Shown here piece by piece: positions 1-56,308 of a stretch of DNA of 64,000 bases (the first letter of the stretch is position 1; each line of letters starts with the position of its first letter). This DNA is from Eledone cirrhosa (lineage: Eukaryota): assembly GCA_964016885.1 (NCBI GenBank), contig OZ024741.1, positions 325,748,001 to 325,812,000 of the forward strand, read 5' to 3'. The notes under the pieces are model-generated. The model saw only the letters and a program-made list of their open reading frames with translations. It made no database searches and was not told the origin of the DNA. Position numbers and translations under genes: made by a program.

Positions 1-3000
1 CACTCCATCAAACACTACCACAAACACACATACCGAAACACCACCACCACCACACAACATACCCTTACCCCACACACCTGACGATGATTATTCATCGACG
101 GATGAAGCTGCTTCTCCTTCTTTAAGTGAAGAGGGAGAACCGCGGAAATCCAAAAAACAAAAAAAGAGACACCACAAAACCCCCAGAACTCCAATCACCA
201 ACACCAACACACAACCACAGACACAAACAACAACACAAACAACACCACAGTCAAACATCCCCCTATCAGCAAAACCAGCACCAACACCACCCCAAACACA
301 AGCACCCACCATAAAAAGAAAACTCCCGGATGAACAACAAACTAAAACAATACAACAAAAACACAAACAACAATACGCATACATCAACACAAACAACAAG
401 AGTTTGATGGAGGTCATCTCCCAAAACCCCAAGGTGGAGACGGAGGGCAAAACTTTCGTCAAGGCAGAATCGTCTCCACACCTTAAACTTATAAGGGTTT
501 CTATGGAAACCTATAAAGACCTGAAAATTAAATTTTCACAGGACGTGGGCAACCCCTGCCACAAACCCATCAACCGCGTCCTGTTGAAAGGTTTCCCCAC
601 CCCACCCAACACCCCATCCAGCACCCAAATGGAGATTGAACAACCCGATCTCCAGGAAACGAAAAGGTAAGTGCACCTTTCGTCCCTTTTCGCCAACTTT
701 TCTTCACCAACATGGCTGGTTTACGAGTTGGAACCGTGAATGTGCGTGGCCTAGGGATGCCCTGGAAACAGGGCCAACTTTTAAACGACCTTAGGTCACA
801 CAGTATGGATGTGATAGCCATCACCGAGTCCAGAATCCACAACAGGCAGCAACTAACCCCCATCTTCGACGACTTTGAGATCTACGCATCTCTCTGTCAG
901 CCAGGAGGTGGAGGTGGAGTGGCTGTCATGTTTCGGAAGAACCTGGACGTCGGAGTACAGCAAGTACACTTGGGCCCGGAGGGTAGACTGGTAGTCCTAG
1001 ACGTGAACAGTATCGGAGGTGGAGCCTTCAGACTGGTGGCCGTTTATGCCCCGACCGGGCAATCGCAATCACGGCCAGACTTCTTTAAGCGTCTAGAGTC
1101 TTTTCTGGGAACGTCTCGCTCCTTACTTTTAGTGGGGGACTGGAATGGTATCCTAGATGCACGATGGGACTATGTGGGAGCATGTCCCAGTAGAGCGGGG
1201 TGCAACAGCGTCAAAACTTTAACTGGCCGATAGGTATCGATTGGATTTCCCGACTGCACCACAGTGGACGTGGGTAAACCGCAGTGGGACATCTAGATCG
1301 TATTTAGATAGGTTCTTCATTAGAGAAAGGGACAAGGATATGTTAAGCTGTCCACGAATGCACATGGTTGCCTATTCAGATCACAAGTTAGTCGTCTGCT
1401 TAGTCAACCGTGATAGAATACATAGACAGGGTCCCGGATACTGGAAGCTGAACGTGTCGTTGCCGGCACGTAAAGCTTACAGTGAACGGATAAGTAAACT
1501 AGTCAAGCAACAGTTAACGGGAGCCATCGTCAACAATAGATGGTGGTACTCTCTCAAGAAAGCAATTAGAATAGAATCGATAGGGTATAGCAGAGAGTTA
1601 GCCTTAGAGAAAAACAGAATAGAAAGAGAACTAGTAGCCAAGGTAGAGGAGGCACTTAGAAGTGGCAACGCGGCTAGAGTGTTAGCGTCGAGAACGGCAC
1701 TGGACCATTTCTTCGATGCGAAACACGAAGGCTGCGTGGTCAGAAGCAAAACACGTGCTCTAGGAATCGAAGGAGCGAAAGCTGTCAGCTGGGCCCGAGT
1801 GGCGGAGGCAAAAAGTGGCAACAAGTCCACGATTCGGTCTTTGAAAGACCAAAACGGACGCGTGCTACTTGACCCCAAGCAAATGTGCGCGGCCTTTCAG
1901 CGGCACTTTGCGCGACTGTTTGAGCAGAACAACGGTGAGGCGAACGGGGCAATGGACTTTAGTTCATACCTCGACGGCCTGCCGCGTCTCTCGAACACGG
2001 ACGCCGAGTTCTGCGAAAGACCGATCACGGACACTGAGATACGGGACGCTCTGGGCCGCTGCGGGAAACGCAAGTCACCCGGTCTAGATGGTCTACCCTA
2101 CGAATTTTATATAGGCATGCCGGACTTGTTCTCTGGCGTCCTCGAAGCCGTCTACTGCAATTGGCAGCAGAACGGGAGAATTCCCAGTTCTGCAGGCAAG
2201 GGCGTAGTAACGCTGATCAGGAAAGACGAGAACAAGGGGGACGAAATTAACAACTTCAGGCCCATAACTCTGCTCAACACAGAGTTAAAGATTTTGGCCA
2301 AGGTGCTAGCGACGAGGTTGGCGCTTGTCGTCGAGAATCTGGTAGGGAAAGCGCAAACGTGTGCACTCCCGACCAGGTCCATACACGACAACCTCCACCT
2401 CATGCGATACATCATAGAGAGGGTGGGTAGTAAACCCGACTTCGGTGGGGCTCTGATCAACTTGGATCAGTCTAAGGCATTCGATAGGGTCGACCATCGA
2501 TACTTGGAAGCGGTTCTCAAGGCGGCCGGTTTCGGTCCCGTGTTCAGAGGATGGATCGAGGCGATGCACACCAGCATCTGCTCGAGGGTCAAGGTGAACG
2601 GCTACCTATCGGAGCCGTTTGCAATCACGCGTTCCATTCGACAGGGATGCCCTCTCTCCTCCATTCTGTATGTATTGACTCTAGAGCCACTACTGCGGAA
2701 ATTGGAGCTGTTGCAGGGCATCCCCCTAGAACCGGGACTGCGCAAAGGGGCGTCGGCTTATGCCGACGACGTGACAGTAATAGTGTCGAGCACCTCGGAA
2801 ATCGGGGTGATCGGCAACATACTGAAAGAATACGAAACGCTGACGGGAGCAAAACTAAACCCAGACAAGTCTGTCGGTTTGCAACTCGGTACGTGGAGAG
2901 GCAAACCGATGACATCCGACAGCGTCGTTGGACGCTGGACGGACGGACCGGTGAAATTGCTCGGGGTCTGGTTCGGTCCAGACCTCCAGGTGGAGAAAAA

Positions 3001-4583
3001 CTGGAACGAGGTCACGGTCAAGGTGTTTGAACTCACTCAGAAGTGGGCAGAGTGCAAACTGTCCTTGAAATGTCGAGTGGAGGTGGCGAACACTTTCATA
3101 GCGTCCGTCATCTACTACCGATTGACTGTCGTGCCTTGTCCCCGTGAACACCTCGCCAAGATGGAACGCATGTTCTTCCAGTTTCTGCTCGGGGTCTGGT
3201 TCGGTCCAGACCTCCAGGTGGAAAAGAACTGGGACGAGGTTACGAACAAGGTGTTTGCACTAACCCAGAAATGGGCCAAGTGTAAGCTGTCCCTAAAAGG
3301 CCGGGCGGAGGTGGCGAACATTTACATAGCGTCCGTACCTTACTACCGCCTGACTGTCGTGCCTTGCCCTAAGGAAACACTCACCACCATGGAATGCATG
3401 CTCTTCCAATTTCTTTGGAAGAAGCGCCCTCCTATGGTGAGAAGATCCATCTGCTGCTAACAACCTTCGAAAGGAGGGCTGGGGATGCCGTGGTTGATGA
3501 TGCGTAGGCACGCATTAAGGCTACGGCACCTACAGGTATCCCTCACTGGTCAACCGGTGTGGGCTCCGTTCGTGAAACGAGCCTTCCCTAGACTCGTCTC
3601 GCTCACCGAGCTGCAGTCCTGGGTCAAGAAAAGATCCGGAAAACTGGGAGACTGGCACACTGAGTGTGCTCAGGCGCTCAGGGCTCTCTGGCAAGCGGGC
3701 CAGGCCATCGGTGGAAAATCCTTCTCATCATTCTATAGAGGGCTGGTGGCTAGCAGGGGCGATGACACCCTTGGAGAGTCGCTGGACATGGAGGAGGACG
3801 AACTGGCCAGCCTGTTCGGTAGGACTTTCGGCCCGGGACCAATGGACAACTTCCAGAAGTCACTAGCCTGGCAGTGCTACCGGGGGGCTCTACCCGTTCG
3901 AGAGAGGCTCTACAGACACGGGCGCCCGGGCAGGGATCCCTCAAAAAAGATTTGCCCTAGATGCGTGCGTCACGAAGAAACCGTTGCGCACGCATTGGTG
4001 CAATGTCCGGGCGTGGCTGATCTGTGGGGCTACGCTGAACGACTGCTGTCGCGGGTGGCGCCGATTCAATTGACCGCCGAGTCCGTGATGACAATCAAAC
4101 CGCCTCCCCTCTTCACAAAGGAAGCAAAGGCGGTTTTTCTGTGCGTGATAGCCATGTTGAAAGAGGTTGTTTGGTGGACACGATTGAAAGGTCTGAGGTC
4201 AGGCAACTTCCTCTCTGGCCATAGTCTGGTCTACTTCTTCCGATATCACTTCGGAAGAAGGATAAGAATGGAGAGAGAGGTGCTTGGCCACAGCCAGTTT
4301 TATGAAACGTGGGTGATAGTGGCGAGAATGGCTCGTGTAAATGGGCCTTCTCTGTATACCATCCTGTAGGTAAAGAAGTGAAGGAGAGGGGAGCACCTTC
4401 TCCATATGCTCCCTGGGCAAAGGATTGCACACTTTTTCGGGGATGTGTGCAACCCCCATCACGTCCCCTCCCTTTTGAGGTTATTTTCGATTATTTTCAT
4501 TTTATACCCTTTTTACTCGATTGTATGTAAACTCCCCCTTTGTATTTGTACCTTCTTTTTATGCCTTTATGGTAAATAAAGAA
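1..4583 (+). mobile_element. L1/Tx1-clade non-LTR retrotransposon (5' end outside window), disrupted
   Basis: ORF1 tail ending at 670; ORF2 with APE endonuclease (TVNVRGL, ITES, LVGDWN, SYLDRF, SDH), RT (SPGLDGL, FRPITLLN, QGCPLS, AYADD) and C-terminal CPRC..EETVAH..QC; 3' UTR ends AATAAAGAAA then (TATC)n. Confidence 0.93.
712..4369 (+). pseudogene. Tx1 ORF2 (APE-RT-zinc finger), broken near 1233 and 3460
   Basis: ORF pieces 712..1233, 1241..3460 and 3485..4369 are consecutive ORF2 domains; contains an in-frame 76-aa duplication. Confidence 0.9.
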
Positions 4584-5890: not shown

Positions 5891-5940
<50 letters not shown>

Positions 5941-5945
<5 letters not shown>

Positions 5946-6645
5946 TCAGGTTATCAATAATGTAGTGATAATATATCGTTACGTTAGAGATGAACAACGT
6001 ACGTGCAGGTTTGCTCAACGAGTATAAATTATATTCCGGAGAAAATGTAGAAAGGATGAATATAAAATGAAAGTGCTTTTGTTAAAAAAGGAATTTATTA
6101 GGTATTGACATATGTTTCTGTAACAGACCGAATACCTATGTATCGCTGCTTGCGTAATGCATATACCAGCTGGATACTAGCATTGAAGTTATTTAGTAGC
6201 AATCGAAATCTCCCCCTTCCCCAATTGACACTTTATAATTAATACTACTGCACCAAATGACCAGCCCTGTCCACTGTCCAGTTGGTCAAGTAGAGATTAA
6301 AATTGGCACTCCCAAAATTCTTATTTAGATTTACTCATGGTATACTCATTAGAAACCCATTATATACTTGTTTAGCAGTAAATTAATTTACCATCTGTCA
6401 TATACTATCCCCTCTGTTCCTTCCTCTTTTACTAATATAAATACTTCAATTTTTCTGATTTTATCCAATTTATCCAAAATCTCTGAAGAAGTGACAACTG
6501 ATTATACATTTGCTATCGAATGCTTACTAACATTATATGATTACGCAAGCAGCGATACATAGGTATTCGGTCTGTTACAGAAACATATGTCAATACCTAA
6601 TAAATTCCTTTTTTAACAAAAGCACTTTCATTTTATATTCATCCT

Positions 6646-6650
<5 letters not shown>
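5941..6650 (-). mobile_element. Fold-back non-coding element in (TA)n, Penelope pLTR/retrozyme-like (family 1)
   Basis: 111-bp inverted repeat 6048-6158 / 6540-6650; unpaired tail 5941-6047; (TA)n on both sides; tail and arm similar to 9196-9320. Confidence 0.8.
6476..6596 (+). ncRNA. Hammerhead ribozyme-like motif with long stem II (stem I decayed)
   Basis: CTGAAGA 6483-6489; stem II GTGACA/TGTTAC around a ~90-nt domain; GAAA 6580; palindromic CATATG; GTC site 6589-6591; stem I does not pair. Confidence 0.6.
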
Positions 6651-7989: not shown

Positions 7990-8152
7990 TATGTAGAAAA
8001 AGATAACACACGAGAGAGAGAGTGTGTGTTTATCAATGTACAGGAAAAACCACCAATGTATGGAATCTATAAACTAAGAAAAATGACGTAGACGCATAAT
8101 AATAAAAAATATAAATCAGACTGAATTTACCCACTTTTATAACTATATATCA

Positions 8153-8231
8153 CACACGTACAAACTCAAAGAGATTTGTTTCGCCAACAGATTAGTGTAT
8201 GGAATGAAACACGCAGGTTGATCAGCGTGTG
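8153..8231 (-). ncRNA. Type I hammerhead ribozyme, G8C-mutated copy
   Basis: Stem I CACACG/CGTGTG; core CTGATCA; GAAA; stem III ACAAA(T)CTC-TTT-GAGTTTGT; GTA site. Confidence 0.7.
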
Positions 8232-8332
8232 ATAAGTTTACTGTCCCATGCTCACATTTCCTTCTCTCTACCACGTGTTGCAATGCAGTTATCTTAAGTT
8301 CCTTTAGAGTTGTCTGGAATGTATTCACTTAC

Positions 8333-8411
8333 CACTTGTTGATGAACCTGCGTGTTTCATTCCATACACTAATCTTTTGGCGAAACAAATCTCTTTGAGT
8401 TTGTACGTGTG
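8333..8411 (+). ncRNA. Type I hammerhead ribozyme, mirror copy (core TTGATGA)
   Basis: TTGATGA 8339-8345, GAAA 8382-8385, GTA 8403-8405; the consensus of the two arms restores CTGATGA. Confidence 0.65.
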
Positions 8412-8685
8412 TTATATATAGTTAAAAAGGTTGGTAAATTCATTCTGATTTATAATTTTAATTATTATGCGACTAACTCACCTTTCTTAGTTTATAGATT
8501 CCATACATTGGTGGTTTTTCCTTACATTGATAAACACACACACTCTCTCTTTCGTATGTTATCTTTTTCTAGATATTATATTTGAAGTGTCCAGGATTCT
8601 TTTTCCTTTGAGCTCATAAATTACAGGGACTAACGCGAGTTTATGACTACGTTAATTTTTTAAAATATACATATGTATATGTATC

Positions 8686-8740
<55 letters not shown>

Positions 8741-8773
8741 GGATTTAAATGGATACAGTTCAGTAAAAGGAAT

Positions 8774-8894
8774 TTATTGACACGTGTTTCAATAACAGTT
8801 ATATAACCTGAAAACGGCTGCTATCTACAAAGTATTAATTATGCAGACACTCAATATTTCAATGTTATTTTCAACTATCATTTCATCAGAATAA
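8774..8894 (-). ncRNA. Mirror copy of the long-stem-II hammerhead
   Basis: Same motif on the minus arm; stem II fully paired over 10 bp (AATGATAGTT/AACTGTTATT, 2 GU). Confidence 0.75.
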
Positions 8895-9091
8895 TCTCAT
8901 TGAGAACTTGTTTGGTTTTTATAGAGAATATTAAGAGGGGGGAGTGAAGTTAGAAGAATAGTTAAGGAAGTGGATAGAAATTTTTGATAGCACTGCTATC
9001 AAAAATTTCTATCCACTTCCTTAACTATTCTTCTAACTTCACTCCCCCCTCTTAATATTCTCTATAAAAACCAAACAAGTTCTCAATGAGA

Positions 9092-9212
9092 TTATTCTGA
9101 TGAAATGATAGTTGAAAATAACATTGAAATATTGAGTGTCTGCATAATTAATACTTTGTAGATAGTAGCCGTTTTCAGGTTATATAACAGTTATTGAAAC
9201 ACGTGTCAATAA
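9092..9212 (+). ncRNA. Type I hammerhead ribozyme with 92-nt stem II domain
   Basis: Stem I TTATT/AATAA; CTGATGA 9097-9103; stem II AATGATAGTT/AACAGTTATT; GAAA 9196; palindrome CACGTG; GTC site ending 9207. Confidence 0.75.
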
Positions 9213-9355
9213 ATTCCTTTTACTGAACTGTATCCATTTAAATCCTTCTATTTTCTCCGGATTACTTTTGAAACTACAACTGGAACCGTCGAGCAAACCC
9301 TACGTGAGCTGTCCATCTACTGTGTGTAATATTCATATTACAACACTACGGAAAA

Positions 9356-9413
<58 letters not shown>

Positions 9414-9415
<2 letters not shown>

Positions 9416-9595
9416 GGAATGCTAAGCTCTGAGGAATGCCAACAGTATGAAACAGAGATCTGTCAGCTTATCTCCCTTTGTTTGCTTAAAAAAGAAGTGA
9501 CATAGTCACTACTTTAAAACAATAGCGTAAGGTCTTCAAAATTCTTTTAATTAAGCATACAGTATATTACCAAATACACTATATATACATTCATA
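9414..9595 (+). mobile_element. Truncated copy of hammerhead element family 3 in (TA)n
   Basis: Near-identical to 10320-10505. Confidence 0.85.
9423..9470 (+). ncRNA. Canonical type I hammerhead ribozyme
   Basis: TAAGCT-CTGAGGA-ATGC CAACA GTAT-GAAA-CAG AGAT CTG-TC-AGCTTA; all core nucleotides intact; predicted cleavage after 9464. Confidence 0.9.
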
Positions 9596-9617
9596 TATAT
9601 ATATATATGTATGTATG

Positions 9618-9749
<132 letters not shown>

Positions 9750-9837
9750 GATACATATATATATATAAATAAAATAAATTAAATGTTATGACTCCGTTAA
9801 TATATTTTTTATATATATATATGTATCTATGTATCTA

Positions 9838-9923
<86 letters not shown>

Positions 9924-10046
9924 TGTATATATAGTGTATTTGGTAATACACTGTATGCTTAAGTAAAAGCATTTTGAAGACCTTACGCTATTGTTTTAAA
10001 GTAGTGACTATGTCACTTACTTCCTTTTTCAACAAACAAAGGGAGA

Positions 10047-10094
10047 TAAGCTGACAGATCTCAGTTTCATACTGTTGGTATTCCTAAGAGCTTA
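10047..10094 (-). ncRNA. Hammerhead copy with G5T core mutation
   Basis: TAAGCT-CTTAGGA-ATAC CAACA GTAT-GAAA-CTGAGATCTG-TC-AGCTTA on minus. Confidence 0.75.
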
Positions 10095-10326
10095 GCACTC
10101 CCTTTGTTTGTTGAAAATTATGAATGTTGGATTCTTATAGAATTCCAGTAATAATCAGGAACTGATTATACAGAGCGGTTGCCGGTCCAGCAAAAATTGA
10201 AAATTAGAATTGGTGTTCTGAAATAACGATGTATATATGAATGTATATATAATGTATTTGGTAATACACTGTATGCTTAATTAAAAGAATCCAACATTCA
10301 TAATTTTCAACAAACAAAGGGAGTGC

Positions 10327-10374
10327 TAAGCTCTGAGGAATACCAACAGCATGAAACAGAGATCTGTCAGCTTA
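10327..10374 (+). ncRNA. Type I hammerhead ribozyme with extended stem I
   Basis: CTGAGGA 10333, GAAA 10353, GTC ending 10368; flanked by a 20-bp helix 10304-10323 / 10376-10395. Confidence 0.88.
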
Positions 10375-10535
10375 TCTCCCTTTGTTTGTTGAAAAAAGAA
10401 GTAAGTGACATAGTCACTACTTTAAAACAATAGCGTAAGGTCTTTAAAATGCTTTTAATTAAGCATACTGTGTATTACCAAATACACTATATATACATTC
10501 ATATATATATCGCTATTTCAGAGCACCAATTCTAA

Positions 10536-11038: not shown

Positions 11039-13698
11039 TTAAGGATACTATTTATGGTTATGTATGTAATAAAGCCTTTTATGGTTATATATTTTTTATA
11101 CAAACCCCAAATAGTGAAAGATAGTAATTAATTGCTATCTTATTACCAGTAAGATAAATAGCTCAATGTAGTAACATCTGTTGTTTTACAGAGCAGTTAT
11201 ATAGAGATTACAATAATCAAAGTACTTGACCTCCTTTTCAACACAAGAGACATATAAAAATATATGCACGTATTGACCCACAGTGGGATGACGTCCATCA
11301 ACATGATATAGCATGGCAATTTACATATAAAGGTTAAAGGATAAGAATAAAAATAAAAATAAAACTAAAAATAAAAATAAAAATAAAAATAAAAATAAAA
11401 ATAAAAATAAAAATAAAAATAAAAATAAAGATAAAAATGAAGCATTGGCAGCTTATGAAGATAAAGCAAGAGGAAAGTTTAGAGTAGTCAGTGTATGAAA
11501 CAATCTCACGTGTAGCATGCACGCGTGTCTTATTTATACAGGATTAGAGTGCGTCAGATTGTTACTTGCAGCGTCAGGCAGTTGAAGCAGGCAATTGATA
11601 TTATGTGGGCTGAATTATTAAATCATTTTTTCGTATACACCTGTATGATATACAGTCCCGAATGTAGAGAAACACCAAAATATCAAAAATATCAAACATA
11701 TTATAAAACATATTATATCGTAGGCAAAACAGTACCACTGTCTTCTGGCACACCACCACTCACATAATCCATGAGACGCAATATATAGAACACGGGTCTA
11801 TCGTATAATCCACGATGGTTCAGCATATAACCAAGTTATAAACCATATCATGTCGATTCTTAATTAATAAATCATGTTGTTTAGTTTTGTGTGATGATAT
11901 TATATTCCGGAAGTGTGTGTGTGACCAAGGGAAGTTAATGCGTAAGGGGAGGTAACTAGCTATTTTTCTTAGTTAAATTTATTATCCTAAATTACATTAA
12001 TGGTGTTTCAAATAAGTGCCTATCATATGATGTTATAACTAATTTCTAGATTATGTAACGTATCTATAGGTTACAGTGTTGTCTATTAAGAAGTACTAAA
12101 GGTGTATGTATCAGGATGATTACCTTCCATTAAGGGGTGTCATATCTGAACATTCTATAAGAAGGGTCAGACTCACAAATCAATGTTCTTTGTAAGTGTA
12201 ATTCCACCCGCAGGACCTGGCATGGTCCTATTATTATATATGACTCCCGGTAAGCTCTGGGTCATTGTATGTCCGGCTGCCTGGCAAATTTGGATATCTC
12301 CAGGGTGATCTGGAGATCAAATCTCCCATATAAAGACACCAGTCTGGCCATCAAGCAATACATAAACTCCCATCTCATATATATATATTAAATTAGGTAT
12401 CTTATCTACAAATTAGAGTGGAGTCTACTAATAAGTACTAAGGGAGTTCATATCATGATGGTTACAATCTAATATGGAGTGCCACACCCGGACAATCTAT
12501 AAGAAGAGTCGGACTTCAAAATTAATTATATGGGTCTCACTACTAATAAGGGTCTTATTACTAATAATGGTCTTATTATCATACAAGACTCCCGGCAAGT
12601 TTCGGGTCATTGTATGACTGCATCCCCGGTAAAATTCAAATATCACCAGGGCGGTCCGGGGACCCGTTCTCCCAACACTTACAAAGAACATTGATTTGTG
12701 AGTCTGACCCTTCTTATAGAATGTTCAGATATGACACCCCTTAATGGAAGGTAATCATCCTGATACATACACCTTTAGTACTTCTTAATAGACTACACTG
12801 TAACCTATAGATAAGTTACATAATCTAGAAATTAGTTATAACATCATATGATAGGCACTTATTTGAAACACCATTAATGTAATTTAGGATAATAAATTTA
12901 ACTAAGAAAAATAGCTAGTTACCTCCCCTTACGCATTAACTCCCCTTGGTCACACACACACTTCCGGAATATAATATCATCACACAAAACTAAACAACAT
13001 GATTTATTAATTAAGAATCGACATGATATGGTTTATAACTTGGTTATATGCTGAACCATCGTGGATTATACGATAGACTCGTGGTCTATATATTGCGTCT
13101 CATGGATTATGTGAGTGGTGGTGTACGCGAAGACAGTGGTACTGTTTTGCCTACGATATAATATGTTTTATAATATGTTTGATATTTTTGATATTTTGGT
13201 GTTTCTCTATATTCGGGATTGTATATCATACAGGTGTATACGAAAAAATGATTTAATAATTCAGCCCACATAATATCAATTGCCTGCTTCAACTGCCTGA
13301 CGCTGCAAGTAACAATCTGACGCACTCTAATCCTGTATAAATAAGACACGCGTGCATGCTACACGTGAGATTGTTTCATACACTGACTACTCTAAATGTT
13401 CCTCTTGCTTTATCTTCATAAGCTGCCAATGCTTCATTTTTATCTTTATTTTATTTTTATTTTTATTCTTATCCTTTAACCTTTATATGTAAATTGCCAT
13501 GCTATATCATTTTGATGGACGTCATCCCACTGTGGGTCAATACGTGCATATGTTTTTATATGTCTCTTGTGTTGAAAAGGAGGTCAAGTATGTTATAGAT
13601 AACTTAATAGTTGCTCCGAAGAATCCAAACCTCGGTTTGGAGGAAACAATTGTAAGCAAATAAATGATTTAAACTGAACTTTGATTATTGTAATCTCT
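11036..13698. mobile_element. Large fold-back element (family 4) with ~1-kb inverted arms
   Basis: Arms 11203-12199 / 12675-13698; tail 11036-11200; (TA)n flanks; mirror ORFs 11525..11767(+) and 13107..13349(-). Confidence 0.88.
13611..13659 (+). ncRNA. Type I hammerhead ribozyme, CCGAAGA core
   Basis: TTGCT-CCGAAGA-(A)TCCAAACC TC GGTTTGGA(G)-GAAA-CAATTG-TA-AGCAA; AATAAA overlaps the end of stem I. Confidence 0.8.
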
Positions 13699-17269: not shown

Positions 17270-17380
17270 AAATAATTATAATTGCTTCTACATTTGGCAC
17301 AAGGCCAGCAATTACCCAGTACATTACTGGTACTTTATTTTATCGACCTCGTAAGGATGAAAGGCAAAGTTAACCTCAGC
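17270..17380 (-). mobile_element. SINE 3' fragment
   Basis: Reverse complement of 14350-14450. Confidence 0.8.
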
Positions 17381-17437
17381 GTGTGGAAATAATTATAATG
17401 ATTAAACGATTTATGTAACCCCAGCATCTTATTTTGT

Positions 17438-21233: not shown

Positions 21234-21940
21234 AGAAACCACCGCAAGATTGCAGAGGAGGAATACGCATAGGCAGATTAGCTGGTACAACCCTCCCTTC
21301 AATAGAGAGGTCTCTGCACCAATAGCTAGGAATTTCTTCACTTTGCTGAAAACACACTTCCCCATACAACATAGGTACTACACCATCATTAATAAGAACA
21401 CAATAAGACTCTCCTACTCCACCACACCTAACTTAGCTAGGAATGTAGCCAACCACCTCCGAACCCAATCCCCGGACTGGGGCCTTGTGTAATTGCCTAA
21501 ATAAAGAAGCCTGCCCACTTGAAAAAAAATGCCTGACAAATGATATCGTATACAAATGTGATGTCATCTCAGGCACCGATGATTGCAATAACAAAAAGAC
21601 TTACATCGGCATGACTTCCAATAACTTTAAGACCCGTTGGTATTCCCATACCCACTCCTTCAGAGGATCGGACAAATCAAACCAGACAACACTCGCCTCC
21701 TATGTTTGGGACCTCAAAAGGAACTCCACCCCCTTCACGCTTAAATGGAAAATACTCCAGAAAGCGCGCTCTTACATCGGAGGACACAAGGGCTGCGACC
21801 TTTGTATCTCAGAGAGCTATCAAATTTTATTCGCCAAGGGCACGCTACTGAACAAACTCACTGAACACTGCCCGAACTGCATGCATAAGAACTTTGCAAT
21901 TTTCAAATACCTTAAGCCAGTGTTAATGCCCGATGGCTAA
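21232..21940 (+). pseudogene. Penelope-like element C-terminus (thumb remnant plus GIY-YIG endonuclease, Naiad-like), 5'-truncated and frameshifted
   Basis: WYNPPFN..INKNTIRLSYS; CNC..CPL..C..IVYKC..KTYIGMT..FKTRW..H..SF..TLASYVWDLK..W.IL..CDLCISE; starts immediately after (TA)n. Confidence 0.88.
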
Positions 21941-22949: not shown

Positions 22950-23000
<51 letters not shown>

Positions 23001-23005
<5 letters not shown>

Positions 23006-24105
23006 ATAATAATAAATTTGAAGACTAAAATCCAAAGAGGGCTCGATAAGGATAAATATATATCAAATATATAAGAACCGTAGAGCAAATATTTATTAAA
23101 ATAACAGATTAAATTTTAAGCAAAGAATCGCTGCTTTCACCCTTAACTGGATCTTCTGAAACTAACAAAGTCAATCTGTAAACGCAGAAGTGGATATTTC
23201 AAAAAACGTTCCAACCGGAGGAAGACAGGAAGACGATACTTTGGTTCGTGGAAACATTCCCTGGCAAAGAACGGGAAAAAACGAATATAATACGTCATTA
23301 ATAGAGGCTGTGAAAAACAATTACGCGCAAAGACAGAACGACGTTTATGGTATAAAAGAAGTCGTAGACTAATGTTCTCTTAGGTGGTTCATAGAGACGT
23401 TCTCTGGCAATGAACGGAAAAAACGAAGATAATACGTCGTATGTGGAGGGTGGAGAACAATTGCACGCAAAGACAAAACCACGTAAATGGTATAGCAGAA
23501 GTCGTAGACTAAAATTCTAACTAGGAAACCGAATGAATCTCCGCTTCAGAGTTAAGAATAAAGTAAATAAAATACAATACAGAGGTAATAGAAATTAAAT
23601 AAATACATGCACGCATACAAATACGTACATACACAAGCATACGCGAAGACACTTGCCATAGGTATACAAAACCACCAATATAAATATGTGTGTGTGTGTG
23701 TGCGTGTATACAAATAAATAAATAATTAAATAAACGTATATAAATAAATAAATACGTATATAACAAGCGCACACACAGACCTACATGTAATTGTTTTTCA
23801 CAGCCTCTATTAATGACGTATTATATTCGTTTTTTCCCGTTCTTTGCCAGGGAACGTTACCACGAACCAAAGTATCGTCTTCCTGTCTTCCTCCGGTTGC
23901 AACGTTTTTTGAAATATCCACTTCTGCGTTTACAGATTGACTTTGTTAGTTTCAGAAGATCCAGTTAAGGGTGAAAGCAGCGATTCTTTGCTTAAACTTT
24001 AATCTGTTATTTTAATAAATATTTGCTCTACGTTTCTTATGTATTTGATATATATTTATCCTTATTGAGCCCTCTTTGGATTTTAGTCTTCAAATTTATT
24101 ATTAT

Positions 24106-24110
<5 letters not shown>
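23001..24110. mobile_element. Fold-back element in (TA)n (family 5)
   Basis: 324-bp arms 23001-23324 / 23787-24110; internal ~140-bp diverged tandem pair 23243-23512. Confidence 0.88.
23948..23998 (+). ncRNA. Hammerhead-like motif with CAGAAGA core
   Basis: AGTTT-CAGAAGA-TCCAGTTAAGGGT-GAAA-GCAG..TTGC-TT-AAACT; mirror copy at 23113-23163(-); homolog at 57309-57359. Confidence 0.6.
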
Positions 24111-24175
<65 letters not shown>

Positions 24176-30561: not shown

Positions 30562-32885
30562 TAATAATGGTTTCTTTATTGGCCACAAGGGCTAACATGA
30601 AGAAAAACATTACAGACGGCACAGGACGATACAAAGTGGATTTTGGCCGTGTAAAAAGGTTATAAAAGACAGAAACGTGTAAAATAAATTAAAAAACAAA
30701 AAAATTCCCCAATAAGGGGGAAGCTTCCAACGGTCACTCGTGGCGAAACCACACAAAAAACCACGGCCACCCTGATCACCCGGGCAAGCGCCCTCTTTCA
30801 GTTTTCCCACTCCTTAGTCTACAGGCGCATCGGACTAGATTCGCCACTTTCACCCACCTTTCAACAAACTTACTAGAAGACAGCACCTTCCTCTCCACCC
30901 TGATTTTCCTCTTCAAGTGAAACTTGAAAAAGTTAATCAGGGATTGGCCGGAGAGGAAAGTGTCCGTCTTCAACCCTTTCAACCTTATCCACCACACAAT
31001 CTCTTTCATCATGGCCACCAGGCAGATGAAGACTGCTTGCCCTTCCTCCTCTTTAAAGGAGGATGGCGGGGTTATCTGCACAATGGACTCAGTCGATAAC
31101 CGGATCTGTCCTACACGTGACAGCAACTGTTCGACATAGCTCCACATGTCAGCAATTCTCGGGCACTGAACGAGTGCGTGCAGGACGGTTTCGCCGTCCT
31201 GCGCGCATCTCGGACGGGCTCGGCTGACAGCACCCCCGTACCTGTAGAGCTTATCCCGAACCGGCAACGCTAGCACCGAAACGGTAGCACTGTCAGGCCA
31301 GGGATTCTGGAAATTGTCCTTAGGCCCCAGGTTGAAAATTCGCTTGAAGAGAGCAAACAGCTGATCGTCTTCGACGCCCAGGGTCTCCCCGAGAACGTCG
31401 TTGCCCTTCCTCTCCACTAGCCCTCTATAGAATGCCAAGGTGGATGTTCCACCGATATCAGTGCCCAGCTGGTGGAGGGCGGTAAGCGCTTGGAGACATT
31501 CCAGCTTCCAAGCGCTATCCCTCGGTCTTTTGCTGATCCAGGACTGCAGCTCCGTCAAGGAGACGAGCTGCGGAAAAGCGTGTCTGGCAAACGGCGACCA
31601 CACCTGTTCACCGTCAAGGAAGCACCAGAGATGTTGCAGCCTCAGCGCATATTTGCGCAACTTCAGCCACGGCATACCCAGTCCTCCACGCAACGGGTTC
31701 CGACAGCAGATGGATCGTTTGATCATGGGAGCACGTCCCTTCCACAAAAAGCGGAAGAGAAGGCGCTCCATTTTAGTCAGAGTTGGACGGGGCAAGGTAC
31801 GACGGTCAGGCGGTAGCAGATGACAGACGCGATGTACGCATTCGCCACCTCCGCTCGACTTTTTTCAGAGATAGCCTCCTCTCAGCCCATTTCTGGGTGA
31901 GAGAAGCCACCCAGATCGTCACCTCGCTCCAGTTTTTCTCCATCTGGTGGTCCGGACCGAACCAGACCCCAAGCAATTTAACCAGTCCTTTCATCCAGCG
32001 CCCCACGATGCTGTCGGACGACATGGACTTGCCTCTCCAGGTGCCGAGTTGCAATCCTACCGACTTTTCCTGGTTTATCTTTGCTCCTGTCACCGCTTCG
32101 TATTCCTTGAGAGCGGTGCCGGGCTTCTGAACGTGTTTGGTGCTCGACACTACCACGGTGACGTCGTTGGCGTAAGCCGACACGGATCTTCCGCATCTCA
32201 GTTCGCGAGGTACCCCCCTCATGGTCTCCAATTTGTGTAGTGATGGCTCGAGGGCCAGTACGTACAACGAGAGAGGACAACCTTGGAGCACCCAGCGCAT
32301 GATGCTGAACGGCTCTGAGAGGTGACCATTCACCCTCACAATCGAGCAGATGTTGCTGTGCATCGCAGCGATCCAGCCTCTAAAAACAGGCCCGAAGCCG
32401 GCCGCCTCGAGGGCCGCAGCCAGGTACCGATGGTCGACCCTGTCAAATGCTTTATATTGATCCAAGTTAATCAGGGCCCCACCTGTGCCAGGTTCCTTAA
32501 CGACCCTGTCTATGATGTATCGCATGAGATGGAGGTGGTTGTGGATGGATCTGTCAGGAAAGGCGCATGTCTGCGCCTCTCTCACCAGATCACCGACGAC
32601 AAGCGTCAATCTCTTTGCTAACACCTTGGCCAAAATCTTGAACTCTGTGTTTAGCAGAGTTATGGGCCTGAAGTTGTCTATAACGTCCCCTTTGTTCGGG
32701 TCTTTTCTCAGCAGCGCCACCGCTCCCTGGGTCACAAAACTGGGAATGCTCCCGTTCTGCTGCCAGTTGCAGTAGAGATCTGCCAAGAGGTCGCCGAACA
32801 AGTCTGGCATGTACGCATAAAGCTCGTAGTGTAGATCATCCAAACCTGGCGATTTACCTCTCGTACAGTTAGACATCGCTTCCAC
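30562..32885 (-). mobile_element. Tx1 LINE 3' half (RT to 3' UTR)
   Basis: ORFs 31806..32885 and 30776..31795; ends AATAAAGAAACCATTATTA. Confidence 0.9.
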
Positions 32886-32892
32886 ATAAATA

Positions 32893-33007
32893 TAATAATT
32901 GTTTCTACTTTAGGCACAAGGCCAGAAATTACTCAGTGCATTACTGGTACTTTATTTTATCGACCCCGTAAGGATGAAAGGCAAAGTCAACCTCAGCGGG
33001 ATTTGAA
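32893..33007 (-). mobile_element. SINE 3' part
   Basis: Homologous to the 14263 family. Confidence 0.8.
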
Positions 33008-33486
33008 TAATGATTTCTTTCTTTATTATTTAAAAAAAAAAAAAAAATAATAAGTAAGCGGAAGGAACTTAGATGGCAACTTGGCTACAAGATTTGTAGT
33101 AGCAATCACCTACATACATACACAGACTAACGCAACACCCCACTCGAGCCCGTTGTTATGGCTACAAAGTTTAGTTTAGACGAATCAAAATACAAAAACA
33201 GCCACAACTACAACAACAACAACACTAGCAGTCCAAGTGACTTCAAAAAGTAGTCATTAATCTATTTATAGACTGATGTTGCTGGCCTGAAAAAAAAGAA
33301 AAAAAAAGAAAAAAAAGAAGAAAAGAACTATCACAAAAATCAAAACAAAAAAAAACAGCCACTGACATCAAACAATTACATTGACACCCACGCCGCCACT
33401 ACCACCACCACCACTACAACAGAAGTATTTGGAAAAGTAACAATAAAAAAAAATGATAATAATGATTTTATTATTAACTACACAAG

Positions 33487-33764: not shown

Positions 33765-33982
33765 GTAATAATTGTTTCTACTTTTGGTACAAGGCCAGCA
33801 AGTACCCAGTGTATTATTGGTACTTTATTTTATCGACCCCGTAAGGATTAAAGGCAAAGTTAACCTCGGCGGGATTAGGGGTAATAATTGTTTCTACTTT
33901 TTGGCACAAGGCCAGCAAATACCCAGCGCATTACTGGTACTTTATTTTATCGAGCCCGTAAGGATGAAAGGCAAAGTTAACA
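33765..33982 (-). mobile_element. Two tandem SINE 3' halves
   Basis: Two ~117-bp units starting at 33762 and 33879. Confidence 0.8.
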
Positions 33983-33984
33983 TC

Positions 33985-35829
33985 ATATGAACTGCCAAAT
34001 CCGGTGATGGTGCCTTAAATTCATTAAACCTCTTTATGAGTGCGTGTTGAACCTAAATAGTTCAAATAGGAGGCTGGAACTTCATGTGAAGGACTCTCAC
34101 CCGACAAGTACTCCTTGGCCCAGCAGCAGGGATCTGGCTGTCATCCAAATACTGTTGATGTTGGAAGGCGAAGAAGGAACGAGGCAAGAACCAACTGGAC
34201 GAAGGAATTGAATAAAACTGTAATGAAATGTTATTTGAAAAATGATCCCACTAAGAAATACTATAGGAAACGAATGCATAAACTCTGGAACGATATTGGT
34301 CTATTTAAATTAGGTGAACAAAATCTAGCAGGTCAGGCTCGTGTAATAAAAACTAATGGATGGATAAGCGAGTTGGAATTAGTGGAACTGAGCAGAGAGA
34401 ATGAGCTGGAAATGGAAGGAAGAGTAGATAAGGCAAATGAGCCTGTAGAAAAAAATGAGGGTGAAGTGGTTTGGAGTCCTGAGGATGTAACCAACGAAGA
34501 CAATGATTTAATTGTTGAGATAAATAACATCTGGAGTAAAGATATGGCCATTGAGAAATGAACTCTAACGGGCTAGGGCAAAATTTTGTTGATATTCTGA
34601 ATTTAATGGATGGTGGTAAAAATGAATAATGATAGTGGAAATCCTATGAATTTAAGATTTGTAGACAGAAACAAGTTAAAAAAAACGACAGTAAGGTAAA
34701 CAAGATCGTCCCATACTTGAGGTAAAGAATCTTCAACAATGTAACAAGATCCTTAAAGCAGCCTCAAATGTGGTGAAAAAGTCACTTTGTATCAAAACGA
34801 GAGAAAACAGATGAGAAAAGACAGAACCTTGGTGGAAGAAGCGGTTGAATGGTCAAACAAAGAAAATAAGAAAATACACCGGGAAACTTATGTCTTTATT
34901 GAACGGAACATTACAAAACATAATTACTAAGGATAGACTGATAAGGAACTACAACACAAAGGGAAAAAAGCTAAATAGTTAATAAGTTAAAAGTGCAAAA
35001 ATTAAAAGATATGAGAGCAGAGTTTGCCAGTATAGACAAAACCGCATATTTGAAAACAACTGGATGTTATCGCAACAACTTGAAGGAAAAGAAAGAGACA
35101 ATGCTATTTTTGAGGCTGAACGGACCAACACATTTTGGAGAGGGATAATAGCCGGGTAGAGTGGATTGAGACTGTTAAAAAGGAGGTTAATGAACAAACA
35201 CACCAACACCTGATTTGAGTATCACGGTTGAAACCCTTACAATAAATTAATCAACTGGAAATCATTAGGCCCAGATGGTGTGCAAGGATATGGGACTAAA
35301 AATATAATGTTCAATTACTGTTTGGTATCGGGTGAAGTCCTGCAGTGGTTGACAAGATGTACCACAGTTCTAAAAGACCAAACGAAAGGAAACGATGTTA
35401 CCAACTATAAGCCTATCACATGCCTGTTCTTGGCGTAGAAACTGCTAACAACCATTATGTCTGAGAAAATCTACTACCACCTCAACATAAACAACCGGAG
35501 GATCAGAAAGGATGCTGAAAGAAGTCCCGTGGTACAAAAAGCAGTTGTGGTCACTGAAAAAGGTGGTGGTAACACCAATAATAGTTGGAATGTTGGGAAC
35601 AAGGAGTAGATATCTTGAGAATAACATTAAACAAATAGGGATTGCAATGCGGATGGAACACTTACAAAAACAGCATTGCTTGGAACAGCTCGAATACTCC
35701 GGAGGGTACTCGAAGTATAATGGGTGCTACCCCAGTTCACTGGTAGTGAACAGCTAACACTAATACCACTAACACTAATACCACTAATCTCCAGCGTTAG
35801 AAGCTGAGCGAAGAAACAACAACAACAAC

Positions 35830-35872: not shown

Positions 35873-38800
35873 CTTTCTTTATTAACCACAAGGGTTTACA
35901 TAAAGTATACATTAAGGACAGTACATGACAATACAGGACAGTACAAATGAGGATGTAAGAAAAAAATAACAATGAAAAATTCCCCAATACGGGGGAGACT
36001 TCCGAGGGACATTCGTGGAGAAAGCCCATTAAAAAAGCCACAGTGACCCTGACCACCAGGGCAAGTGCCCTCTCACAGTTTTCCACCTTTAATTTACAGA
36101 CACATACTCAGAGTAGGCCCATTCACTCGGGCCATTCTTGCCTCTCTCACCCATCTTTCAACAAAATTCTGGGAAGAGAGCACTTCCCTCTCTATTCTGA
36201 TTTTCCTTTTCAAATGAAATTTGAAAAAGTTAATCAGGGCATCACCGAAGAGGTAAGTGCTCGTCTTCAGCCCTTTCAAACGTGTCCACAATACTATCTC
36301 TTTCGCCATGGCCACCAGACAAATAAAAACTGCCTGCCCTTCCCGGCTAAAGGAAGAGGGCGGGGCAATCCCCATGATGGACTCAGCTGCTAGCTGGATC
36401 AGTCCTACACGCGACAGCAGATGTTCGACATAAACCCACAAGTCAGAAATGCTCGGACACTGGACGAGTGCGTGCAGGACGGTTTCGTCGCCCTGCGCGC
36501 ATCTTGGACACGCCCGCTTGACGGCACCTCCATGCCTGTAGAGTTTATCCCGAACTGGCAAAGCTCCTCGGTAGCACTGCCAGGCCAGGGATTTCTGGAA
36601 GTTGTCCATAGGCCCCGGCCCGAAATTTCTTCCGAAGAGATTGGCTAGTTAATTTTCGTCGACGCCTAGAGTTTCCCCAAGTACGTCGTCGCTCTTCCCC
36701 TCCACTAATCCTCTATAGAACGCCAAGGTGGAGTTTCCACCGATCACATCGCCCAATTGGTCGAGGGCTGTGAGCGCCTGAAGACATTCCAGTCTCCAAG
36801 CGCTTCCTCTCGGTCTTCCCTAGACCCAGGACTGCAGCTCCGTCAAGGAGACGAGCTGGGGAAAGACGCGTCTAGCAAACGGCGACCACACCTGAGCACC
36901 GTCGAGGAAGAGGTGGAGATGTCGTAGCCTGAGCGCGTGTCTGTGCATCATCAGCCACGGAATGCCCAGCCCTCCACCATAGCGGGTGTTGACAGTAGAT
37001 GGACCGCCTGACCATCGGAGCGCGTCCCTTCCACAAAAAGCGAAAGAGCAAGCGCTCCAGCGCAGTCAGGCGGGGCTTAGGACAAGGTACGACGGTCAGG
37101 TGGTAGTAGATGACGGACGCTATGTACGCGTTAGTCATCTCCGCTCGACCTTTCAGGGATAGTTTCCTCTCCGCCCAATTTTGGGTGAGAGAAGCCACCC
37201 TGCTCGTCACCTCGTCCAAGTTCTTGTCCGTCTGGAGGTCCGGACCGAACCAGATCCCTAGCAATTTAACCGGTCCGTCTTTCTATCGCCCGACGACGCT
37301 GTTGGGCGGCATGGACCTGCCTCTCCAGGTGACGAGATGCAGGCCCACTGACTTTTCCTGGTTGATCATTGCTCCTGTCACCGCTTCGTATTCTCTTAGT
37401 GTAGTGCCGATCGCCTCGATGTGTTTGGCGTTCGACACCACTACGGTGACATCGTCCGCATATGCTGACACGGATCTTCCGCATCCTAGTTCGCGCGGGA
37501 CGCCCCTCAAGGTCTCCAGTTTGTGCAGTAATGGCTCGAGAGTCAATACGTACAAGAGGGACGAGAGGGGATATCCTTGGCGGACCGAGCGCATGATGTT
37601 GAACGGTTCCGAAAGGTGACCGTTCACTCTCACCACAGAGCAGATGTCGCTGTGCGTGGCAGCGATCCAGCCTCTGAAGACGGGCCCAAAGCCAGCCGCC
37701 CCCAGGACTGCCGCTAGGTAACGATGGTCGACCCTATCAAAAGCTTTCGACTGATCTAAATTGATAAAGGACCCACCCGTGCCAGGTTCCTTAGCTACCC
37801 TCTCCACGATGTATCGCATGAGGTGGAGGTTGTCGTGGATGGATCTGTCGGGAATGGCGCATGTCTGCGCCTCTCCCACCAGACCACCAACGACAAGCGC
37901 CAACCTCTTTGCTAGCACCTTGGCCCAAATCTTGAACTCTGTGTTTAGCAGAGTTATGGACCTGAAATTATCTATGTTATCCCTCTTGCTCGGATCCTTT
38001 CTCAGTGCCACAGCTCATCGGCTCACAGAGCTGGGAATTATCCCGTTCTGTTGCCAGTTGTAGTAGACGTCCGCCAAGAGGCCTCCGAACCAGTCTGGTA
38101 TCTGTACGTAAAGTTCATAGGGCAGAGCATCCAAACCAGGCGATTTACCCATTGTGCAGCCAGTCATTGCCTCCCGTACTTCAGCGGCTGTTATCGGCTT
38201 TTCGCAACACTCCGCCTCAGTGGCTGAGAACCGCGGCAGTCCGTCGATGTAGACACTAAAGTCCATCCCTCGATCCGGCCCGCCGCTGCCCCCGAACAGC
38301 TGAGCGAAGTGTCGCTGAAAAGCTTCACACATTTGCCCTGGATCGAGTAGCATGCGCCCGTCGTGGTCCACCAAAGACGGGATCGTGGCTTTGTTGCCAC
38401 GACGCGCCTCCGCCACTCGGGCCCATTGAACGGCTTTCGTCCCATCGAGTCTGAGAGCACGCACCCTAGCTCTGACAACGCAGCCTTCGTGCTTTGCATT
38501 GAAGAATTGGTCAAGGGCCAATTTCGCCGCAACTACGTCGGTCGCGATGCCTTTGCTAAGCGCCTCGTCTAATTTTCTAACTAGTTCTCCTTCTGCTCTA
38601 TTTTTCTCTATTACTAAAACCTTACTAAACCTAATGAACTCTATTCTAATCGCTCTTTTCAGAGCAAACCACCACTTGTTGTTGAATATGGCCCCCGTCA
38701 TCGCCCACTTAACAAGTTCGCTAATCCGGTCTCTGTAGTCCTTGCGCGCTGGTAAGGATGCGTTTAGCTTCCAGAAGCCGGGTCCTCGTCTATGCAGCCT

Positions 38801-48000: not shown

Positions 48001-48678
48001 GGAGGAGGCTAGCCCACTGTGCAGGATCTGTGGAGAGAGAGAGGAGACTGTGGCTCACATTGTGTCCGAGTGTAAACACCTAGCCCAGACCCACTATAAG
48101 GGCTGGAGACACGATGTGATGGGCAGGGTGATCCACTGGCACCTGTGCAAAGTAAACAATCTACCACATTCTGAGAAATGGTATGAGCATAGGCCAGAGG
48201 CGGTGATGGAGAACAGTCAGGTGAAGGTGCTGTGGGATTTTAGGATACAGACGGACAAAAAACTGGAACACAATAGACCTGACCTGGTGGTTGTGGACAA
48301 AGAAAAAAGATCGTGCCTGATTGTGGATGTGGCCTGCCCGTTCGACACGAGAGTGCAAGAGAAGGAGAGGGAGAAAATTAACCGATACCAGGACCTAAAG
48401 TGGGAGGTGAAAAGGATTTGGAACTGCCATGAAGTCAAAGTGAACCCGATTGTCATAGGCGCACTGGGGACTATCTCCAAAGGTTTCCAGGGATGGTTAA
48501 AGAAAATCGGCCCCTTCACGCTTTTTGGAACGCTTCAAAAGGCATGCTTGCTTGGAACGGCAAGAACCCTCCGATACGTCCTGAATATCTGAGGCTGCAG
48601 GTAGTGGCTTGATACTCAATCCAACGGACTTTCCAGTTAACCAACATCAATGACTGAGATTCAAGGAATAACAATAAC

Positions 48679-52600: not shown

Positions 52601-53671
52601 ATTACAAAAGATGCACAAAGATACAGTAATGGACTACAAATTTCAGAAGTCCCATTTACTGCTGAAATGGAAAACACAGAAAAAGCAAAGCAGGTAAAAG
52701 TAACTGCAAAGAAAGAACTGCTACAGAAACTGGCTAAGAAATGGCAAGAAAAGCCTCTGTATGGAAAATACCCAGAGCGAGCTAACAATCCTGATGTTGA
52801 CAAAACTTTAACCCATCAGTGGTTGGCATCCTCTGGACTGAAATCGGAGACTGAAGGACTGATTATATCAGCACAAGATCAGTGTCTGCCAACAAAAAAT
52901 TACCAAGCCAACATAATAAAAAATGGATGCAGCCCATTATGCCGTGTATGCAAAAAACAACCAGAGACCATTGACCATATAATTTCAATGTGCAGTCCTA
53001 TAGCTCCAACCGAATACCTAAACAGGCATGACAGAGCTGCACAATATATACATTGGATAATGTGTAAGCATTTTGACCTTCCCCATCAAAAGAGTTGGTG
53101 GGAGCATCAACCACCTCCCATACTTGAAAAAGATCCCATCTCAATCTTGTGGAACTTTAGCATCCAAACAGACCGAAAAATAGATGCAAATAGACCTGAT
53201 ATAATATTGAAGGACTTTAAAAAGAGGGTATGCCTGCTAATTGATATGTCTGTTCCAATAGACAAGAATGTATCTATAAAAACATTTGAAAAATTGAGCA
53301 AGTATAAGGACCTGGAGATAGAAATTGGAAAAATGTGGAAATTGAGAACTAAAACAATACCAGTGGTTGTAGGCGCTCTGGGAATGATACCTAAGGGGTC
53401 TAATGATTACTTATCGCAAATCCCAGGAAACCCGCGTATAGGAGAAATACAAAAGATAGTACTAATGGGAACTGCCCATATACTAAGGAAGATTCTGTCA
53501 ATATAAGTACATCACAAGTCTAAACACTAAGGATGCATGTGTGAGTATGTATGTTCTTTCTTGAACATGGCGGACCTTGTTGTCTCTTGAGGTCACTGGT
53601 TGTGACTTGGTGATAACTCGTATGAACATAAAGCAAGATAAATGCAACTGTAATAATAATAATAATAATAA
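49700..53671 (+). mobile_element. Full-length R4/Dong-clade LINE, family B, several disruptions
   Basis: ORF pieces 50430..50795, 50877..52502 (YMDD) and 52499..53506 (CRVC..HIISMC, ANRPDII); (TAA)n tail. Confidence 0.92.
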
Positions 53672-56115: not shown

Positions 56116-56308
56116 ATAATTGTTTCTACTTTTGGAACAAGGCCAGCAATTATCGCAATGCATAACTAATACTTTATTTTATTGACTCCGTAAGAATTAA
56201 AGGCAAAGTTAACCTCGGCGGAATTTGAACTCAGATCATAAAGGACCGTAACTCTCTGCTGCAAAGCATGGTGTCCGACCCTCTACCGATACTGCCAATC
56301 CACCGCCC
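56116..56308 (-). mobile_element. Full-length SINE
   Basis: Reverse complement of the 14263 family. Confidence 0.88.

Follow-up and report, generated by a model that had tools for sequence, protein, structure and literature searches.

The window, that is the whole stretch of 64,000 nucleotides of Eledone cirrhosa DNA analysed here (contig OZ024741.1, positions 325,748,001 to 325,812,000), contains at 8738-9358 an insertion of a repeat that we call family A and at 5940-6649 an insertion of its sister, family B. In each, two truncated ends stand in inverted orientation and a single arm has the optional tail, and both carry a hammerhead motif whose stem II is drawn out into a rod of about 90 nt. 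The host genome is 3.0 Gb in size and rich in TA microsatellites.

8738..9358, unstranded: family A insertion, two 5'-truncated 3' ends, head-to-head joint at 8993, (TA)n on either side
8738..8992, minus: left arm; stops at the short terminus, ~40 nt beyond the predicted cut site
8994..9358, plus: right arm; stops at the long terminus, ~150 nt beyond the cut site
9249-9358, plus: 110-nt tail of the right arm
8774..8894, minus: second, family-typical hammerhead copy; core 8889-8883, GAAAC..GUC 8790-8779
9063..9070, plus: TATA-like box, 34 nt 5' of the core (putative promoter)
9092..9096, plus: stem I, 5' strand TTATT
9097..9103, plus: core box CUGAUGA (DNA CTGATGA)
9104..9195, plus: 92-nt stem II, an irregular unbranched rod
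9123..9178, plus: internal loop 1; A9123-U9124 bulge, pair U9125-A9177, A9123 facing G9178
9135..9165, plus: internal loop 2; A9135-G9136 bulge, pair U9137-A9164, A9135 facing G9165
9196..9207, plus: GAAA box and palindromic stem III ACACGUGU, the whole segment reading GAAACACGTGTC; cut predicted after C9207
9208..9213, plus: stem I, 3' strand, doubling as an AAUAAA hexamer (putative poly(A) signal)
5940..6649, unstranded: family B insertion in (TA)n, inverted truncated arm plus direct arm
5940-about 6160: family B inverted arm, with the long tail
to 6649: family B direct arm, with the short end
6477..6598, plus: family B hammerhead; core 6483-6489, rod 6490-6579 (90 nt), weak or bulged stem I
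6580-6591, plus: family B GAAA box, stem III and cut segment, GAAACAUAUGUC (= GAAACATATGTC)
9421-9470, plus; 10325-10375, plus; about 10060-10100, minus: compact hammerheads of another repeat family
21253-21940, plus: fragment of another Hydra-type RT/GIY-YIG ORF (1,439 candidates)
11410-13464: long inverted repeat of another element, 790 nt at 98%
22953-24158: long inverted repeat of another element, 372 nt at 98%
about 8000-8600: imperfect inverted pair of another element
17276-17405, 32893-33022, 33766-34012, 56115-56244, 59360-59687: dispersed SINE-like repeat, 75-130 nt
640-4369, 30776-32909, 36872-39061, 45169-48592, 50250-53506: near-complete LINE ORFs, which we take to be L1/Tx1-like and RTE/NeSL-like

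The two window insertions and their surroundings

The first-pass annotation had placed the two core boxes of family A 92 nt apart and closed them with a TTATT/AATAA stem I, and these positions are correct (9097-9103, 9196-9207, 9092-9096 and 9208-9212). Its 10-bp helix (9104-9113/9186-9195) is fully paired in the typical family member, but only nine of the ten pairs form in the plus copy. The segment 8774-9212 reads as a palindrome about position 8993, in which two of 258 pairs are mismatched, and hence includes a second hammerhead copy on the minus strand (8894-8774). Both mismatches are private changes of the plus copy, at 9166 and 9189, that weaken its stem II; at 9189 it has an A, where 29 of 30 genomic family A copies, which pair fully, have a T. 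In fold predictions the base of stem II opens in the plus copy and UUAUUGA pairs with UCAAUAA instead, the minus copy folds into the full rod, and RNA reading through the insertion forms a 255-bp hairpin that buries both motifs. Judged by this modelled hairpin and the predicted misfolding of the plus copy, the family A insertion in the window is likely an inert by-product. A first look at the genome gave 831 candidates for family A, the best 40 of which are 96-100% identical; family copies share a 3' end that runs into (TA)n and differ in their 5' ends. An AAUAAA hexamer lies 0-10 nt past the predicted cut in many families (A, B, C, E, M and several compact ones) and is absent in family F; in family A the hexamer doubles as stem I's 3' strand, and competition between cleavage and polyadenylation could result.

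The relative at 6483, in which the 90-nt spacing had been noticed at the outset, is sister family B (1,329 genome candidates; 70% protein identity to family A). Its core box reads CTGAAGA, and its 90-nt rod contains the same two internal loops as that of family A. The helices of the two families had been described as different; they are in fact homologous (ATGAYA/TGTTAT versus GTGACA/TGTTAC) and differ by one compensatory change from A-U to G-C. Stem I of family B consists of one contiguous pair in 20 of 22 distinct copies (three to four pairs with a bulge), and the family is young and abundant despite this near-absence.

Other repeats carry related structures. The compact hammerheads at 9421-10375 possess a 6-pair stem I, a 13-nt arm and a 12-nt palindromic stem III (ACAGAGAUCUGU); they are inverted copies in (TA)n, and the minus copy has a changed core. 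The family of the ORF fragment at 21253-21940 ends in a hammerhead with a 12-nt arm and a 7-nt stem III loop region (L327, L328, L333). A fold-back repeat of 150-200 nt (L164-L168; for example L164, minus strand, about 3900-4150), whose arms hold the CUGAGGA complement as well as GAAACGUACGUA, resembles a long-arm hammerhead but lacks stem I; it may derive from one. The hammerhead pattern was not found in the inverted repeats at 11410-13464, 22953-24158 and about 8000-8600.

The ribozyme core and the element that carries it

The core boxes CUGANGA, GAAA and NUH are present in this order in 30/30 family A copies at a spacing of 92-93 nt and in 30/30 family B copies at 90 nt, these copies having been chosen by overall DNA similarity. 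The spacing and the bridging helix, on whose conservation in other genomic copies the first-pass annotation had staked its reading, are both kept. Pattern searches of the genome returned 2,857 matches for the A-type palindrome (none in the reversed control), 2,490 (control 64), 294 (3), 95 (16) and 12,753 (62) for other patterns with a 70-125-nt spacing, and 12,497 (1,323) for the compact pattern with 8-30 nt. Long-arm hammerheads (48-116 nt) accordingly occur in many families, with ~18,000 pattern matches genome-wide, a count that is overstated, since the fold-back family without stem I (6/6) and an RTE coding stretch match by coincidence.

For the analysis of covariation, 241 distinct pattern matches were reduced to 37 clusters and then to 19 groups, about 18 singletons with poor stems being excluded; the stems were not part of the search patterns, but part of the sample had been picked on stem III palindromes. 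Stem I has a mean of 3.9 pairs across the 19 groups, compared with 2.62 when partners are swapped, and the base of stem II has 5.58 compared with 4.04; in both cases none of 20,000 permutations was as high. Within families A, B and C, 94% of the cells in the core-flanking stems are paired and five of nine pairs are compensatory (slid controls, 27-44% paired). Across the 19 groups, covariation with the core extends to stems I, II and III, and it is these stems, which the search patterns had left open, that mark the long motif as a hammerhead. The original description, a Penelope hammerhead with a palindromic, dimer-type stem III and a ~90-nt spacing maintained in a diverged relative by covariation, is supported in both respects: the motif is of type I, the spacing of ~90 nt is kept, and compensatory changes run across families. 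In full units of families A, B, C and F, it is the sole CUGANGA of the non-coding part.

The stems themselves vary considerably. Stem I comprises five A-U pairs in family A (36/39 copies), 7-10 pairs in F, three in C and one in B; it does not form in constrained monomer folds of A, B and C, though it covaries across the groups. The G10.1-C11.1 pair is missing in A and C, which have A-U there, and follows one extra base as G-C in B and D. Stem III palindromes (ACGT, ATAT, GTAC, CATG and GATC in A/B/C/D/F) give duplexes of -7.0 to -11.2 kcal/mol; that of ACACGUGU has -10.3 kcal/mol and appears when the typical family A copy is folded in tandem without constraints. No Rfam hammerhead model was among the 150 matches listed for the window or the 87 matches on five loci (E<=10), all of which were AT-hairpin miRNA noise. 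A compact alternative fold of family A (22-nt arm, GAAAUAUU) was rejected, as its stem I has two pairs and neither B nor C has a counterpart.

Full copies encode a reverse transcriptase (RT; YRDD) plus, at the C terminus, a GIY-YIG endonuclease (EN), with RWK, DKT and CxCx5C motifs. A single ORF of 794 amino acids contains YRDD and YYVGST..R..H, an assignment made from the motifs and from visual comparison with published Hydra proteins; two full ORFs gave no match in Pfam. By the criteria of PMC8557442, the traits of the Hydra clade of Penelope-like elements (PLEs) are present: RWK, DKT, the CxCx5C linker, CxxC in the EN domain and a C-terminal EN. Traits of EN+ PLEs are likewise found, namely tandem pseudo-LTRs, an inverted 5'-truncated copy and an optional tail. 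Insertion favours (TA)n, ends running into TA repeats in 45/49 copies of family A, 58/62 of B and 44/50 of C, and the tandem units of these families are 3.1-3.6 kb long. Past the predicted cut, the 3' ends cluster in two places: in family A at about +40 nt (13 of 49) and +150 nt (28 of 49), in B at +55/+165 and in C at +50/+195. Since all copies end 40-195 nt beyond the cut site, their templates were intact or had been re-ligated there. DNA contig matches bore out the family and its two ends; among the matches listed, none was an RNA record carrying the stretch, and no relatives were found in metagenome contigs.

Two other identities were discarded: a SECIS element, as the intact ORFs have no in-frame UGA, and a non-LTR retrozyme, which would consist of non-coding units in tandem, each a few hundred nt long and with a hammerhead of its own, as A-C are the ends of coding elements of 3.1-3.6 kb. 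Linkage to an ORF was seen for A, B, C, E, F and J and was not seen for D (0/10), H, I, K, M and N. Family D, which lacks an ORF upstream in 10/10 loci, may on this sequence criterion be a retrozyme; it is an old repeat with a 71-nt arm (L101-L130, L225-L259), some copies of which have a second CUGANGA 16-19 nt upstream. In a tree built from database homologues only, A-C group together (100/99), and F with J likewise (100/99), inside a 10-row clade (97/93). One family inside this 10-row clade has an arm of ~20 nt, and in an outgroup family the arm measures 12 nt (3/10 downstream fetches). Sister Hydra families amplify with arms this short; the clade can therefore do without the long form, and arm length is labile.

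A TATA-like box lies at -35 to -50 in 43/50 copies of family A, 34/42 of B and 9/29 of C, and in a family with a 12-nt arm, its place being -40 to -50 in B, C and this last family; it is absent upstream of the core in F, E, H and K. A promoter at this place would start the RNA just 5' of the motif in A, B and C, and one might then suppose that the motif has lost its cleavage, and that rod and core persist in the pseudo-LTR as a structural signal (a promoter-proximal leader, RT recruitment or RNA stability). The near-absence of stem I in family B and the templates that were intact at the cut site fit this proposal. We nevertheless consider it improbable, since core, stem I and palindromic stem III covary in 19 groups, as would be required for catalysis in a dimer but not for a simple hairpin.

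The long stem II and its recurrent internal loop

What had been taken for an inserted domain is not a separate branched domain, as the insert folded into a single unbranched rod in 6/6 folds (families A, B, C and F). Its folding z-scores are -2.3 to -6.6 in A, B, C, D and F and weak in H, J, Q and R. The inserts of A, B and C align with one another (53-64%, z 2.2-7.2), but their 300 nt of upstream sequence show no such similarity (z about 0); 46 of 118 fourfold sites are identical among A/B/C, and the 200 nt downstream of the insert are also conserved. By these alignments, the insert is more constrained than the upstream UTR. The rods of B and C, when compared, are 96% paired with three compensatory pairs of 13, and an arm length of 88-93 nt has been held in A, B and C despite protein identities of 62-70%. 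The rod of family D is 87% paired with 13 compensatory pairs of 32, yet RNAalifold preferred another, small hairpin.

The most conspicuous feature of the rod is a 2x1 internal loop, 5'-A-N-U / A-G-3', that was spotted by eye before it was tested. It is present in nine of the 19 groups, and these nine are related and represent perhaps three to four independent lineages; the next commonest 2x1 or 1x2 type occurs in two. The best fold can accommodate it in 34/34 inserts of A, 15/16 of B, 17/21 of C, 5/10 of E, 29/33 of F, 2/2 of J and 2/3 of K, compared with 22 of 760 shuffles (3%) and one reversed sequence. It occurs twice each in A, B and C, and its distance from the core is 14-42 nt. The loop was not found in D (0/40), H, I and N, nor in the single copies P, Q and R. 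In family M (58-63-nt arms), a held-out set fetched after the loop had been recognized, 10 of 24 matches pass the fold test; across 18 aligned copies the seven loop columns are 78-100% conserved (insert mean 67%), and the flanking helices covary. A likeness to loop E or C-loop motifs was considered and does not fit.

The suggestion of a regulatory, protein-binding or tertiary-contact module can be narrowed by these observations. The recurrent loop agrees with a protein-binding or structural role, and the tertiary part of the suggestion found no partner: the apical loops are 3-12 nt long, and no pseudoknot or loop-loop complement is conserved in the flanks. The internal loop likely binds a protein.

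The length of the arm could have another origin, namely growth by small duplications that was tolerated, with selection keeping only the pairing and the loop being inherited without a partner. Stem II ranges from 11 to 116 nt across families, and family F varies between 99 and 116 nt through a tandem repeat in the tip. No alignment was obtained between the A/B/C inserts and those of F/J/K (B-F z 0.7), and sisters with compact arms exist. Against such drift speaks the same loop at different places in inserts that cannot be aligned, and twice in A/B/C, as does the fact that the loop columns outlast the surrounding helices in family M. Moreover, shortening is rare, with 20 shortened copies of family F compared with about 12,750 long-window matches, and 88-93 nt are held across A, B and C. 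Hence, we regard tolerated growth as possible but somewhat unlikely. An arm length that compensates for A-U-rich stems was rejected, as it fails for a 48-nt family with a G-C-rich base. Family F (L211, L212, L216) is the most abundant long-arm family and accounts for most of the 12,753 matches; its units of 6.5-6.7 kb have a 3' UTR of >3 kb, a 7-10-pair stem I and a splice-donor-like GGUAUGU in the arm.

The insert might instead hold a short spliceosomal intron, the removal of which would leave a compact hammerhead, comparable to the intron beside the Drosophila virilis Penelope hammerhead. GT...AG pairs 42-54 nt apart exist in E, F, J, K and O-S, and the donor in F is a good one. An intron of 42 nt would be very short. 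The main A subfamily (L205) has a donor-like GT and a pyrimidine-rich AG, and splicing there would leave a 9-bp hairpin. PLEs are described as keeping introns (PMC2377424). However, the A subfamily of the window, B and C have no donor at the matching place, the GT-AG junction is the breakpoint in 0/20 shortened copies of F, and no such joint was seen in the DNA contigs. The conserved UAG and GUA are, furthermore, the two strands of the internal loop. Splicing of this kind is very improbable.

We favour, at a probability of roughly 55%, a pseudo-LTR hammerhead that cuts slowly as a dimer and whose rod serves as a folding scaffold and as a binding site for the element's own RT-endonuclease. Stem II would have grown into a conserved rod of ~90 nt in the pseudo-LTR hammerhead of a Hydra-clade element. 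In the tandem elements of families A-C, one transcript would carry two motifs, which the palindromic stem III would join into a double hammerhead that cuts slowly; the TATA-like box would set the start of transcription just 5' of the motif. If cleavage takes place after C17, the upstream piece would keep the rod at its 3' end, and a 5'-OH RNA that starts ~210 nt ahead of the ORF's ATG would be released. New genomic copies would arise from RNA in which the cut site is unbroken or has been re-ligated. The rod with its A.G loops would both scaffold folding and bind the RT-endonuclease.

A bolder proposal would make the A.G/bulge/U-A loop the recognition site of the telomerase-related RT-endonuclease and the hammerhead a protein-loading platform with cleavage switched on by binding, thousands of which would have been missed in cephalopod-like genomes by size-limited searches; we hold this to be unlikely. 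What is new is a stem II of ~90 nt with a recurrent loop, and hence a structural variant of a known ribozyme in a known class of elements.

Comparison with known hammerheads

The comparisons that follow draw on the available parts of the cited sources. The closest relatives are the hammerheads of Hydra PLEs (Craig et al. 2021, PMC8557442), with which the motif shares a type I architecture near the 3' end, an extra unpaired base on each side of stem II, a tiny palindromic stem III, (TA)n targets, the inverted truncated copy and RWK/DKT/CxCx5C. Many published Hydra motifs also lack G10.1-C11.1. The difference lies in the arm: the 26 Hydra rows of File S2 in that study have 12-26 nt between the boxes and the Octopus bimaculoides family has 23 nt, whereas the families here have 88-93 nt, up to 116 nt, and recurrent internal loops, an arm of ~90 nt being some four times as long as those published. 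The 3' UTR is ~1 kb and the tail 110 nt here, compared with a published Hydra PLE tail of 30-40 nt. No report of a ~90-nt stem II in PLE hammerheads was found in the searchable literature, which excludes most subscription papers.

The descriptor search of that study limited the spacer to 7-17 nt. Rfam and such descriptor searches miss a class that, by pattern matches, is no less numerous here than the compact one (~18,000 versus 12,497), and claims that some clades are without hammerheads may therefore need to be re-checked. Within this one genome, stem II arms form a natural series of 12 to 116 nt, which, given intact ORFs and a small conserved loop, offers direct test constructs. It bears on the question of protein-assisted ribozymes, on how a telomerase-related RT picks its RNA and, with that, on the role of hammerheads in PLEs.

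Metazoan PLE hammerheads of the minimal type (Cervera and De la Pena 2014, PMC4209133) likewise have a dimer-type stem III, a short stem I, an unpaired base after A9 and a low expected activity, but their 'large' helix II has 6-8 bp, and G10.1-C11.1 is conserved, unlike in families A and C. Cleavage as a dimer at low rates has been shown for other PLE hammerheads (PMC4209133; reviewed in PMC6765202). The non-canonical long-loop hammerheads of spike-moss PLE-X and the 'half cores' of Naiad (PMC8557442) also have distant boxes (~48-54 nt and 35-50 nt, respectively) on which descriptors fail; they are half as long, belong to other clades and, in the parts of the study drawn on, are described without covariation analysis or a loop motif.

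Anolis Poseidon (Frangieh et al. 2024, PMC11167929) resembles the present families in the two RT start sites past the cut that define the tail, and in a model of protein-assisted cleavage; its compact stem II overlaps the start codon, whereas the motif here lies ~210 nt 5' of the ATG. Protein help for the cleavage of PLE hammerheads has been reported there: the Anolis motif cut only when the element's protein was present, and hammerhead cleavage was dispensable for insertion in vitro. By analogy, protein-dependent cutting in Anolis would make the conserved loop a natural candidate binding site. The discontinuous hammerhead of mammalian CLEC2 (PMC6765202), finally, also has a long insert and adjoins a poly(A) signal, but its insert of hundreds of nt splits enzyme and substrate within a host gene, whereas the insert described here is a paired stem II within a transposon.
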